Below, piece after piece: positions 1-3,000 of a stretch of 64,000 bases of DNA. Origin of the DNA: Escherichia coli (GTDB taxonomy: Bacteria > Pseudomonadota > Gammaproteobacteria > Enterobacterales > Enterobacteriaceae); NCBI RefSeq assembly GCF_045037415.1, contig NZ_CP173438.1, one strand, 5' to 3'. Each line of letters opens with the position of its first letter. Positions within the stretch are counted from its first letter, which is position 1. A program made the position numbers.

Positions 1-3000
1 ACACTTAATACCCTACCCCGTATCTGTGTTTCTTTTTCGGGTGGTAAAGATTCCGGATTAATGCTGCATCTGACAGCTGAAATTGCCCGACAAATGGGCA
101 AAAAAATCTGCGTTTTGTTTATCGACTGGGAAGCGCAGTTCTCATGCACTATTAACTATGTTCAGTCATTACGTGAGTTTTACGCCGATGTCATCGAAGA
201 GTTTTACTGGGTTGCGCTCCCGCTTACGACGCAAAATTCCCTTTCTCAATACCAACCCGAATGGCAGTGCTGGGAACCTGATGTCGAATGGGTGCGTCAG
301 CCCCCGCAAGATGCGATAACCGATCCTGACTTTTTCTCCTTTTACCAGCCTGGCATGACCTTCGAACAATTTGTGCGTGAGTTTGCTGAATGGTTTTCAC
401 AAAAACGTCCGGCGGCGATGATGATCGGCATCCGTGCAGATGAGTCCTACAACCGTTTTGTCGCCATCGCCAGTTTAAATAAACAACGTTTTGCCGATGA
501 TAAGCCCTGGACCACCGCCGCACCAGGCGGTCATAGCTGGTACATTTACCCCATCTACGACTGGAAAGTGGCTGATATCTGGACCTGGTATGCTAACCAT
601 CAACAGCTCTGTAACCCACTGTATAATATAATGTATCAGGCAGGCGTCCCTCTGCGTCATATGCGAATTTGCGAACCTTTTGGCCCGGAGCAACGGCAAG
701 GATTATGGCTCTATCACGTTATCGAACCGGATCGCTGGGCTGCTATGTGCGCACGAGTCAGCGGGGTAAAAAGTGGCGGCATTTACGCCGGACATGATAA
801 TCATTTTTATGGTCATCGGAAAATCCTCAAGCCAGAACATTTAGACTGGCAAGAATATGCATTATTGCTGCTCAATAGCATGCCGGAAAAAACAGCGGAG
901 CATTACCGCAATAAAATCGCCATTTATTTGCACTGGTATCAGAAAAAAAGCATCACGGTTCCACAAACTCAGCAAGGGGACATTGGGGCGAAAGATATCC
1001 CCTCCTGGCGGCGAATATGCAAAGTTTTACTCAATAACGATTACTGGTGTCGGGCATTATCATTTAGCCCTACGAAAGCGAAGAACTATCAGCGTTATAA
1101 CGAACGGATAAAAGGAAAACGTAAGGAATGGGGGATACTATGCAACAACGATTAACGCAGGATTTAACCCAATTTCTCGCCAGCTTGCCGGAAGATGATC
1201 GCATCAACGCGATTAATGAAATCCGCATGGCGATCCATCAGGTTAGCCCCTTTCGTGAAGAGCCAGTGGATTGCGTTCTGTGGGTTAAAAACAGCCAACT
1301 TATGCCTAATGATTACAACCCAAACAACGTGGCACCACCCGAAAAAAAACTGCTGAAAAAATCCATTGAAATAGATGGTTTTACCCAACCCATTGTGGTC
1401 ACGCATACGGATAAAAATGCCCTGGAAATCGTGGATGGTTTTCACCGCCATGAAATTGGTAAAGGCTCATCATCGTTAAAATTACGCTTAAAAGGTTATT
1501 TGCCGGTGACCTGTCTGGAAGGTACGCGTAATCAACGCATCGCCGCGACTATTCGTCATAATCGCGCTCGTGGACGTCACCAAATCACTGCCATGTCAGA
1601 AATCGTCCGAGAACTCAGCCAGTTGGGATGGGACGATAATAAAATTGGCAAAGAGCTGGGAATGGACAGCGACGAAGTGTTACGCCTGAAGCAAATTAAC
1701 GGCCTGCAAGAGTTGTTTGCCGACCGTCAATTTTCCCGCGCCTGGACGGTTAAATAACTACAGCTGGCGCAGGCGTTCTGCTGCTGCCAGCAACGTCGAT
1801 TCCTTCTTGGCAAAACAGAGACGAATCAGTTTATGTGGGAAGGGATCGGCGCAAAACACCGACAGCGGAATCGCCGCTACGCCGTGCTCCCGCGTCAGCC
1901 ACTGGCAAAACTCAACATCATCCATCGTAGATACGGCGCTGTAATCCACCAGCAAAAAGTATGTACCTTCGCACGGTAAAATCTCCAGCCGACTTTCATT
2001 TAAGGCATTCACCAGAATATCGCGCTTCTGGCGATAAAAGTCCGATAATGCAAGATAATGCTCAGGTTCTGCACGTAGCATATCGGCAAGCGCCAGTTGT
2101 GCCGGGGTATTCACCGAAAAGGTCAGATACTGATGCACTTTGCGGATCTCGGCGCTGATGGGCGCAGGCGCAACGCAATAACCCACTTTCCAGCCGGTCA
2201 TATGATAGGTCTTACCAAACGATGACACCGCCACCGCTCGCTCACGCAATTGCGGATGCGCCAGCACGCTGGCATGGCCCTGTTGTGAAAAATTGATGTG
2301 CTCGTAGACTTCATCGCTAATGACAAAAATCTCGTGCCCGGCGATCGCCTGCCACAGAGCGGCGAAATCAGTCTGCTGCCAGACAGTTGCACTGGGGTTA
2401 TGCGGGGTGTTGAGGATCACCAGTCGGGTGCGCTCGCTTAACAATGCGGCAAATTCCTGCCAGTCAACGCGAAAATGCGGCGGTTGCAGTGCAATACGTT
2501 TCACTATTCCCCCCGAAAGTGCGATGGCGGGGGCGTAACTGTCATAGCTGGGATCAAAACAAATCACTTCGTCGCCATTGCGCACCAATGCGGTTATCGC
2601 CGCGTATAACGCCTCCGTCGCCCCTGCCGTCACGGTGATATTGCTGTCGACATCCGGTTGATAGCCATACAGACGTTCCGTTTTCTGAGCAATCGCCTCG
2701 CGCAAGGCCTGCACGCCGGTCATGGGTGCGTATTGGTTTGCCCCCTGGGCAACGTGGTACGCCAGCCGCTCCTGTAAATAGCGCGGACCATCAAAATCAG
2801 GAAAGCCTTGCGAAAGGTTAATCGCCTGGTGTTGCTGCGCCAGCGCGCTCATCTTGGTGAAAATAGTGGTGCCAAGTTGTGGAAGTTTGCTTTGTGGAAT
2901 CAGAGGGTTATTTGTCATTTTTATTGTACCTGACGAAGTTGCGTGTTGAAGGCACTATAACACGATGCTAGTATTTGGCAATCAAGACGTTTAGATGTCT

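Follow-up and report, generated by a model that had tools for sequence, protein, structure and literature searches.

The first 1757 nucleotides (nt) of the stretch of Escherichia coli DNA analysed here (64,000 nt of NCBI RefSeq assembly GCF_045037415.1, contig NZ_CP173438.1; hereafter the window) hold two overlapping genes, ybdN and ybdM, a pair that belongs to the IbrA/IbrB family. Tentatively, and with slightly less than even confidence, we read the pair as a module that derives from mobile elements, with YbdM bringing an adenylylating YbdN to DNA and the expression of foreign genes being changed (activated) as a result. The ybdNM locus and the IbrA/IbrB family are already known and named. 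The initial annotation, made from the DNA of the window by itself, had described the biochemical function of the pair as unresolved, and a search of the literature indeed found no mechanistic study. What is added here is a corrected reading of the 3'-phosphoadenosine-5'-phosphosulfate (PAPS) reductase label, a quantified co-occurrence of the two genes, the accessory genes that accompany them, and their plasmid and virulence context. Both ybdN and ybdM belong to the E. coli K-12 genes that have yet to be given a function, and the pair has been tied to the activation of silent prophage genes. If true, a DNA-directed adenylylating module would represent a new enzyme logic for the marking of DNA or for the counter-silencing of foreign genes, with a bearing on virulence-gene control and on the conflict between phage and host.

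The locus is made up as follows:

1..1155, plus strand: ybdN, codons 23-406 and the stop codon, identified from the open reading frame (ORF) and its frame and from 100% identity to the annotated ybdN; an IbrA-family PP-loop enzyme.

1128..1757, plus strand: ybdM, an ORF of 209 amino acids (aa), RefSeq product name "IbrB-like domain-containing protein"; IbrB-family and ParB-like.

1128..1155, plus strand: the 28-nt overlap between the 3' end of ybdN and the annotated 5' end of ybdM, from the ORF coordinates.

The names given to the two genes by the initial annotation were correct: the stretch is 100% identical to the annotated E. coli genes and was found in 5420 of 5426 complete genomes, and ybdN and ybdM are real, conserved genes rather than chance ORFs. 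Direct translation of frame 1 of the window from nt 1 gives TLNTLPRICVSFSGGKDSGLM, and this open frame, reading ...CVSFSGGKDSGLM, ends at the ybdN stop codon at 1153-1155. The edge of the window removes the first 66 nt (22 codons) of ybdN, which in an identical genome (L001 5935-7155) encodes 406 aa at full length. The annotated start of ybdM is the ATG at 1128, and its stop codon lies at 1755-1757. The overlap of 28 nt noted earlier holds for this start, and is reduced to 16 nt if the alternative in-frame ATG at 1140 is used. Both Met codons are kept in the enterobacterial orthologues of ybdM; the sequence AAGGA immediately abuts the ATG at 1128, and GGGGGA sits 4 nt before the ATG at 1140. 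Either may be the true start. The genes overlap by 28, 19 or 16 nt in the enterobacterial orthologues; many distant pairs show an ATGA-type overlap of 4 nt.

The two genes are almost always found together. Co-occurrence across genomes had been chosen beforehand as the test on which the pairing would stand or fall. One genome per species from Proteobacteria, Bacteroidota, Firmicutes, Verrucomicrobia and other phyla was scanned with a 21-sequence alignment, and in 77 of the 79 loci so obtained the IbrB gene was adjacent to the IbrA gene and on the same strand. One of the two exceptions lies at a contig edge; the other is without the gene. The pair was likewise adjacent in 79 of 80 viral contigs, with the lone exception at a contig end, and phage records gave 224 matches for YbdN and 226 for YbdM with an identical host breakdown, the two being adjacent in every record inspected. 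The order of the genes is A–B in most genomes and B–A in 56 viral loci, and this variability argues for selection on co-expression rather than a frozen accident. The domain forms co-vary as well: IbrA proteins with a long C-terminus (215 residues or more beyond PIYDW, a motif described below) pair with IbrB proteins that lack an N-terminal hairpin (counts 39/13/7/100; odds ratio 43, p = 7e-19, uncorrected for phylogeny), which fits a physical partnership without proving it. No natural IbrA–IbrB fusions and no informative extra domains were found in the long IbrA homologues. The homology of the pair to IbrA/IbrB, also proposed in the initial annotation, is borne out by the RefSeq name, by adjacent phage coding sequences annotated as IbrA and IbrB that match YbdN (36%, E = 8e-77) and YbdM (≈48%), and by PHROG matches of both proteins (YbdN to phrog_2302, 3e-76; YbdM to phrog_2159, "ParB-like", E = 1.2e-68).

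YbdN matches two Pfam families, PAPS_reduct (E = 1.9e-15) and DUF3440 (E = 1.1e-31), and the same architecture was present in every listed homologue. The family comprises 1688 clusters at E-values up to 1e-3 in a search of 1.8 billion proteins. Conservation was judged from an alignment of 82 diverse family members (A1), in which the following features of the window stand out:

37..54, plus strand: PP-loop SGGKDS, YbdN residues 35-40 by translation; the ATP pyrophosphatase signature, conserved in 75-80 of the 82 family members.

124..132, plus strand: D64-x-E66 (FIDWEA), invariant in 82/82 sequences.

427..447, plus strand: GIRADES, residues 165-171 (GIRxDES in the family), with G165, R167, E170, S171 and R174 invariant or nearly so.

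550..564, plus strand: PIYDW, residues 206-210, followed by D214 and W216, nearly invariant.

643..1152, plus strand: DUF3440, the C-terminal domain peculiar to the IbrA family; assigned by Pfam and all-helical in a confident model.

The PP-loop had previously been placed at nt 40-57; the motif is indeed present, but those positions encode GGKDSG, a slip of 3 nt from the correct position. Residues D64, E66, S171, D214 and Y230 are invariant, and a conserved Trp-rich insert (W92, W110, W113 and W119) is specific to the family. Across the 82 members no cysteine column is conserved; C246 is Cys in 39 of 82. In the AlphaFold2 (AF2) model (pLDDT 93.4, pTM 0.91), the first ≈230 residues match CysH, adenosine-5'-phosphosulfate (APS) reductases, FAD synthase/FMN adenylyltransferase (FMNAT) and CysD in Foldseek (E = 4e-7 to 1e-4). 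The CysH match was 6vpu (E = 3.9e-7, probability 1.0), so that the PAPS reductase fold is present. For DUF3440, a profile of the C-terminal domain found no solved homologue in the PDB (best E = 0.26), and the whole-chain Foldseek matches cover the N-domain only.

The description of YbdN as "PAPS-reductase-type" therefore held for the fold family and failed for the likely chemistry, given the lack of a conserved cysteine and the adenylyltransferase relatives. When the family profile was compared with the PDB, CysD (6.8e-11) and FAD synthase (1.2e-9) outranked CysH (4.2e-6). In the profile alignment, SGGKDS of YbdN pairs with SIGKDS of CysD and with NGGKDC of FAD synthase, the corresponding loop of CysH being a degenerate SSSFGIQ; PIYDW falls opposite the P(L/I)xDW motif shared by CysD, FAD synthase and CysH. 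Because CysD and FAD synthase outrank CysH and the CysH loop is degenerate, "PAPS reductase" is a fold name only, and as a product name for YbdN it is misleading. YbdN fell far under the cut-off of every NCBIfam equivalog: it scored 12-26 bits against cut-offs of 154-254 with the CysH and APS-reductase models (NF002537, 26.4 versus 154; TIGR02057, 20.5 versus 254; TIGR00434, 14.7 versus 165), 25 versus 195 bits with the CysD model, and 21 versus 290.4 bits with the DndC model TIGR03183. Because the family conserves no cysteine, YbdN is neither a PAPS reductase nor a DndC. Its nearest solved relatives, CysD and FMNAT, transfer AMP from ATP to an oxyanion (sulfate and phosphate, respectively), and the sequence of YbdN points to an ATP pyrophosphatase or adenylyltransferase that would work without thiol or iron–sulfur chemistry. 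The earlier suggestion that the pair has a role outside sulfate metabolism is strengthened by the missing cysteine, the intact ATP-type PP-loop and the adenylyltransferase relatives.

For YbdM, motif conservation and the family profile were derived from 73 IbrB-family sequences. Three regions are of note:

1434..1448, plus strand: DGFHR, YbdM residues 103-107, at the position of the ParB GERRxR box; D103, G104 and R107 are invariant and H106 is at least 90% conserved.

1554..1580, plus strand: RHNRARGRH, residues 143-151, a family-specific basic motif; N145, A147, G149 and H151 are invariant, and R143, H144, R146 and R148 are at least 90% conserved.

1584..1715, plus strand: helix-turn-helix (HTH) region, residues ≈153-196, with model helices at 153-165, 170-177 and 181-196 and an HTH-like sequence match.

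As a single sequence, YbdM matched Pfam ParB_N with an E-value of 2.7e-5 and 24.6 bits, slightly under the cut-off of 26.3. The family profile found Noc (1.3e-6), ParB (4e-5), SbnI (2e-3) and free serine kinase (0.04) in the PDB. With the AF2 model (pLDDT 88.9), Foldseek returned the ParB-CDP complex 6sdk (5.7e-8), Noc 7nfu and KorB 8qa9 (TM-score 0.55), with 146-166 aligned columns and E-values of 6e-8 to 1e-6. These alignments extend over the nucleotide-binding N-domain and the HTH domain alike, whereas SbnI (8e-4) and sulfiredoxin (Srx; 1e-3) match the core only, over ≈90-100 residues. A two-domain fold of the ParB/Noc/KorB type is thus confirmed for the predicted structure of YbdM. Both domain assignments of the initial annotation, a PP-loop in YbdN and a ParB/Srx-type fold in YbdM, were recovered in this way by profile searches and confident models.

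The details of YbdM depart from ParB at several places. The model has an extra N-terminal helical hairpin. In the alignment with Noc, NDYNPN stands opposite NrfQPR and DGFHRy opposite GERRWR, and the ENLQR box is missing, its place being taken by RHNRARGxH. The Gln and Glu of ParB involved in CTP hydrolysis are Asn and Phe in YbdM. ParB-type CTP hydrolysis needs that Gln and Glu (cf. the titles of PDB entries 7bnr, Q52A, and 7o0n, E93A). The C-terminal dimerisation domain is missing as well, the chain ending at residue 209, right after the HTH. Phe105 occupies the position of the catalytic Cys of sulfiredoxin (GCHR); the DGxHR form of the motif is also found in sulfiredoxin, SerK/SbnI and DndB.

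The IbrA/IbrB family is spread over phages of at least four bacterial phyla, enterobacterial virulence plasmids and the core genes of gut Bacteroidales, Clostridia and Enterobacteriaceae, and in many of these settings it has further partners. Sixteen genome loci, phages phiAQ113 and FCL-2 and several viral contigs have a SNF2-family helicase gene directly upstream of the pair. In 27 genome loci the module includes a third gene, for a divergent GNAT-fold protein of ≈130 aa (acetyltransferase profile match in the PDB, 3e-5); Bacteroidales have the order GNAT-A-B, Clostridia A-GNAT-B. Viral contigs add an unannotated domain of ≈136 aa, here called v0, which is encoded between ibrB and ibrA in 26 loci and is fused to the C-terminus of IbrB in ≈32. 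Its consensus is RIYHxYxKWE...SCEHxLTN...NRxAWLGQAA, and it had no match in Pfam, PHROG or the PDB. The loci concerned are:

GNAT-bearing loci: L041, L051 and L062-L088 (Bacteroidales); L033, L044-L053, L061 and L076 (Clostridia/Bacilli).

v0 examples: viral contigs L097-L168, e.g., L154 6573-6995; also L032 4796-5983 and L046 3976-4437.

In phages Akoma, Laroye, 031MP003, Taranis and RHph_I4, the pair sits beside extra ParB-like genes and DNA methyltransferases, near terminase, while viral contigs carry it inside replication/recombination modules (NinB, NinG, YqaJ, SSB and DnaC-like genes). A role of IbrB as a small terminase was considered and ruled out: Faecalibacterium phage Taranis has its own TerS, and core-genome copies exist. 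In four Clostridia loci, the module comes after the HU gene and rplM-rpsI. The initial annotation had left open whether the target was DNA or tRNA. We prefer DNA because YbdM has a ParB N-domain and an HTH and because the neighbours include SNF2 helicases, DNA methyltransferases and phage recombination genes; the tRNA half of the proposal fares poorly.

In Enterobacteriaceae, the family falls into two lineages. The ybdNM orthologues have a fixed synteny (dsbG-citR-ybdN-ybdM-ybdL), with CitR upstream in most genera. The IbrAB-type copies, ≈55-60% identical to ybdNM, occupy variable sites, islands and virulence plasmids, and were found on 854 plasmid records. On the Klebsiella pneumoniae IncFIB plasmid p11311-1 (L171 8989-10850), a pair with 58% identity to YbdN lies immediately upstream of iroBCDN and adjoins fecIA, and on E. 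coli plasmids (L170 and L172) the pair adjoins hly/ompP/autotransporter or K88/HyxB/SPATE loci. A distant blastn search with ybdNM gave 7874 places in 5420 E. coli genomes, up to five per genome, 79 of them on plasmids; diverged IbrAB-type paralogues are thus common in E. coli. The genome identical to the window carries a second ybdNM-related place elsewhere. The 64-kb window itself holds no pair other than ybdNM.

The chromosomal pair is under the control of its neighbour. CitR (YbdO) binds upstream of citR-ybdNM, and when citR is deleted, ybdN rises by log2 5.5 and ybdM by log2 2.5 (PMC9068703). The deletion is a cassette replacement, and read-through may contribute to the rise of ybdNM. The gene reported to be H-NS-regulated is citR and not ybdNM (PMC9068703). 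The GC content is ≈0.36 in citR, which lies just upstream of the left edge of the window (0.35-0.37; L001 4886-5788), 0.43-0.49 in ybdNM and >0.5 in the flanks. The low GC content of citR and ybdNM fits the reported H-NS regulation of citR, and the citR-ybdNM block looks like an old AT-rich insertion. Apart from the flagellar and cys genes, those up-regulated in the citR deletion cluster within ≈40 kb of ybdNM: ahpC (b0605), citCEF (b0615, b0616 and b0618), pagP (b0622) and lptE (b0641) (PMC9068703, Table 1); this cluster, b0601-b0641, could reflect a local amplification, the CitR regulon or a long-range cis effect of the ParB-like protein. A link to sulfur through induction of the cys regulon in the citR deletion was considered and rejected as non-specific, since the cys and flagellar genes go up in an unrelated yneJ mutant too (PMC9068703).

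For the IbrAB-type copies, PMC7649339 states, after Sandt 2002, that expression of Eib is enhanced by IbrAB/ibrB, and that infection with Shiga toxin-producing E. coli induces ibrB along with a neighbouring perC homologue.

From these elements, the mode of action of the pair can be sketched. The overlapping frames would lead to coupled translation, and YbdN and YbdM may form a complex. The HTH of YbdM would carry YbdN to DNA, and the basic pocket of YbdM would probably bind a nucleotide, handled otherwise than CTP is in ParB. By analogy with CysD and FMNAT, YbdN might then use ATP to adenylylate, and thereby activate, a phosphate-type acceptor that belongs to DNA or to a factor bound to it. 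The expected outcome would be that silent, horizontally acquired genes are switched on, which matches the report for IbrAB and the prophage eib genes. In E. coli K-12, the operon is kept off by the adjacent LysR repressor CitR and lies in an AT-rich tract.

Several points weigh against this scheme. DNA binding by YbdM, the YbdN–YbdM complex and catalysis are all deduced from folds and gene neighbourhoods. In E. coli the pair has no helicase, methyltransferase or GNAT partner, none of the accessory genes occurring in the window, and the modules of Clostridia and Bacteroidales lie amid housekeeping genes rather than mobile elements. PADLOC gave weak partial matches only (DndC, 2.3e-5 over ≈100 residues; BrxP, 1.7e-4; MTase_II, 6.6e-4). 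Since ParB/Srx domains with DGxHR include the SerK and SbnI kinases and sulfiredoxin, YbdM could itself be an enzyme instead of a protein that targets DNA. The activation of Eib is reportedly the finding of a single 2002 study (Sandt et al.), made with multicopy clones and said to be silent on mechanism.

A more far-reaching proposal, which we regard as possible if doubtful, is that IbrA/IbrB and the interchangeable accessories (SNF2, GNAT-like and v0) constitute a widespread, uncharacterised ATP-dependent system that writes a new mark on DNA or nucleoid proteins, the mark being an adenylyl-activated or adenylyl-linked group whose formation involves no sulfur chemistry. The K-12 copy would be silent, and derepressing it would bring out the mark and what it does to xenogeneic silencing or restriction.

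Among the alternatives to recruitment of YbdN for the activation of foreign genes, covalent modification of DNA survives best, although on the whole we think it unlikely. IbrB would recognise DNA, IbrA would adenylylate either a base or a backbone phosphate, and the mark, once completed by a nucleophile or an accessory protein (GNAT-like or v0), would shield phage or plasmid DNA from restriction, effects on expression being secondary. The architecture of the pair parallels DndB–DndC and DpdB–DpdA, and the local matches of YbdN to DndC and BrxP, weak as they are, point the same way. So do the phage pairs that lie beside methyltransferases, ParB-like genes and terminase or within replication/recombination modules, the recurrence of the SNF2 helicase, GNAT-like and v0 partners, and the Trp-rich insert of YbdN, which could hold a planar substrate. 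However, methyltransferases and helicases are common in the early regions of phages regardless, and the sulfur-relay or iron–sulfur cysteines, DndA/D/E and a restriction partner are all missing. The score of 21 bits with the DndC model, against a cut-off of 290, and the absence of a cognate nuclease from the core-genome copies also count against a modification system, as does the fact that E. coli has no known unexplained DNA modification, though the operon is silent in the laboratory.

An improbable alternative is that YbdN synthesises a ligand for which YbdM is the receptor. The product would be an adenylylated small molecule, e.g., a dinucleotide made in an FMNAT-like manner, which the YbdM pocket would bind in place of CTP, controlling DNA clamping and counter-silencing in the way of VirB or KorB. 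The nearest solved relatives of YbdN do make adenylylated small molecules (APS and FAD), and YbdM retains the ParB fold while exchanging the residues for CTP hydrolysis and adding a basic motif of its own, RHNRARGxH. ParB-type regulators with a nucleotide switch exist, KorB being among the top fold matches and VirB known from the literature, and virulence loci adjoin the plasmid copies. On the other hand, a diffusible ligand requires neither the near-absolute adjacency of the genes nor overlapping frames or co-varying domain forms; the helicase, GNAT and v0 partners would go unexplained, and the scheme is wholly inferential.

We give still less weight to a DNA-independent pathway of two enzymes that act on a small molecule or protein, in which YbdM would be a kinase like SerK or SbnI and YbdN would adenylylate the resulting phosphate, the succession of kinase and adenylyltransferase known from FAD synthesis, or AMPylate a protein. 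SbnI, SerK and sulfiredoxin are among the profile and fold matches of YbdM and share its DGxHR motif, YbdN is closest to CysD and FMNAT, and core copies in Clostridia and Bacteroidales lie amid metabolic and housekeeping genes. Against this, the best fold matches of YbdM (ParB, Noc and KorB) include the HTH, and the E-values of the kinases and sulfiredoxin are ≈10,000 times weaker. Phage neighbourhoods are dominated by DNA metabolism, and the induction of cys genes in the citR mutant is shared with the yneJ mutant and hence non-specific.

A pair that modifies tRNA or rRNA, with the PP-loop enzyme adenylylating a base as in TilS, ThiI or TtuA and YbdM as an RNA-binding helper, seems highly improbable to us. 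Many PP-loop ATPases do modify tRNA; TtuA, NcsA and TilS are among the weaker fold matches (TilS N-domain, E = 1e-4), and core copies in Clostridia lie near ribosomal protein and aspS genes. The best relatives of YbdN, however, belong to the PAPS-reductase clade (CysD, FMNAT and CysH) and not to the tRNA thiolase or TilS clades, iron–sulfur or persulfide cysteines and any known RNA-binding domain are absent, and the partner is of ParB type among phage neighbours that are DNA enzymes. Finally, we attach almost no credence to YbdN as a genuine PAPS/APS reductase or sulfurylase of sulfate assimilation, in spite of the RefSeq product name, the Pfam PAPS_reduct and CysH fold matches and the rise of the cys regulon when ybdNM is derepressed: the catalytic C-terminal Cys of CysH and indeed any conserved cysteine are lacking, the scores with the CysH and APS-reductase models fall far below their cut-offs, the ATP PP-loop is intact unlike that of CysH, there is no CysN-like partner, the cys genes also respond in an unrelated mutant, and the obligate ParB-like partner and the distribution in phages would be left unexplained.

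The order of genes around the chromosomal pair is dsbG, citR (ybdO), ybdN, ybdM, ybdL (on the opposite strand), hcxA, ybdD, cstA and entH. The stop codon of ybdM (1755-1757) and the end of ybdL on the minus strand (1758) abut with zero intergenic bases, leaving no room for a terminator (window 1755-1760), and terminator-like hairpins near ybdM/ybdL are confined to the inside of ybdL. In an RNA-seq survey, ybdL-ybdM is listed among the convergent "excludons" with overlapping transcripts (PMC12288877). Promoter and terminator scans of the ybdNM region gave background levels only; a perfect TATAAT precedes the ybdN ATG by 52 nt. A search for short inverted repeats near the operon, of the kind expected for a parS-like palindrome, gave weak repeats only, none of them convincing. 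The chromosomal ybdNM lies ≈6 kb from the ent cluster, which may be a coincidence.

Some individual copies deserve mention. A metagenome-assembled genome labelled Candidatus Heimdallarchaeota (L039 615-2443) contains a full IbrA–IbrB pair with a 4-nt overlap and 35% identity to YbdN, which could be viral, a bacterial contamination or a real transfer. In Escherichia albertii NBRC 107761 (L011 1154-1783), ybdN is intact while ybdM is broken into two ORFs, of 51 and 120 aa, and is apparently a frameshifted pseudogene. E. coli ETEC1731 has an annotated IS3-family transposase under a ybdNM-related match, which is split in two. The 2.3-kb record OR845499.1, "Escherichia phage ECO95 1-6-1" (L169), encodes a protein 78% identical to YbdM and has no megablast match in any E. 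coli genome; it is probably a fragment from another enterobacterium deposited as phage. Its use as a probe for an E. coli IbrAB island was dropped for lack of such a match.

Of the systems already described, IbrA/IbrB, the immunoglobulin-binding regulators of E. coli ECOR-9 known as "co-activators of prophage gene expression", are the closest, with the same family and domain architecture as YbdN/YbdM. The two differ in that ybdNM is core chromosomal, with a fixed synteny and a dedicated LysR repressor, whereas IbrAB is found in islands and plasmids; activation of eib has been shown for IbrAB only and not for YbdNM. CysD and the PAPS domain of FMNAT/FAD synthase share the PP-loop, the P-x-x-DW motif and the fold with YbdN and are its best profile matches in the PDB, but are only ≈17% identical to it; the Trp-rich insert and DUF3440 set YbdN apart, and it has no CysN GTPase partner and no identified flavin motif. 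CysH belongs to the same fold family (Pfam PF01507; Foldseek E = 4e-7) and has a degenerate PP-loop, where that of YbdN is intact. The catalytic cysteine of CysH is C-terminal, in a motif of the ECGLH type, and YbdN conserves no cysteine.

YbdM has the N-domain and HTH fold of ParB, Noc and KorB, and KorB and VirB regulate the transcription of mobile-element genes. It differs from these proteins in having DGFHR for GERRxR, NPN for QPR and RHNRARGxH for ENLQR and in lacking the dimerisation domain, and from the ParB clamps in its N-terminal hairpin and its obligate enzyme partner. No parA gene is present in the local gene order, and a parS context is likewise absent. With sulfiredoxin and SerK/SbnI, YbdM has in common the Srx-type core fold and the G-x-H-R motif, without the catalytic Cys of sulfiredoxin. 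Phage lambda NinC is a PAPS-reductase-family protein of the nin region whose role is unknown (PMC10695390). It lies in the type of genomic slot common to many viral IbrAB pairs, without a ParB-like partner.

Two DNA-modification systems combine the same kinds of protein. In DndB/DndC, as in ybdNM, a ParB-superfamily protein stands beside a PP-loop ATP pyrophosphatase of the PAPS reductase family, and Dnd acts on DNA. DndC needs the cysteines of its [4Fe-4S] cluster, C280 being essential, whereas YbdN has no conserved Cys, carries DUF3440 and scores far below the DndC cut-off. Membership of YbdN in DndC or BrxP was rejected, the matches being short and weak and the Fe–S cysteines missing. No dndA/D/E, DndFGH or restriction genes occur near ybdNM, where the neighbours are citR, dsbG, ybdL and hcxA. 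In 7-deazaguanine modification of DNA, DpdB is a ParB-like ATPase that aids the base-modifying enzyme DpdA, a tRNA-guanine transglycosylase (TGT) whose fold is unrelated to that of YbdN. By analogy, the ybdNM arrangement would be most like DndB–DndC or DpdB–DpdA, or like a regulator of the VirB/KorB type joined to an enzyme.

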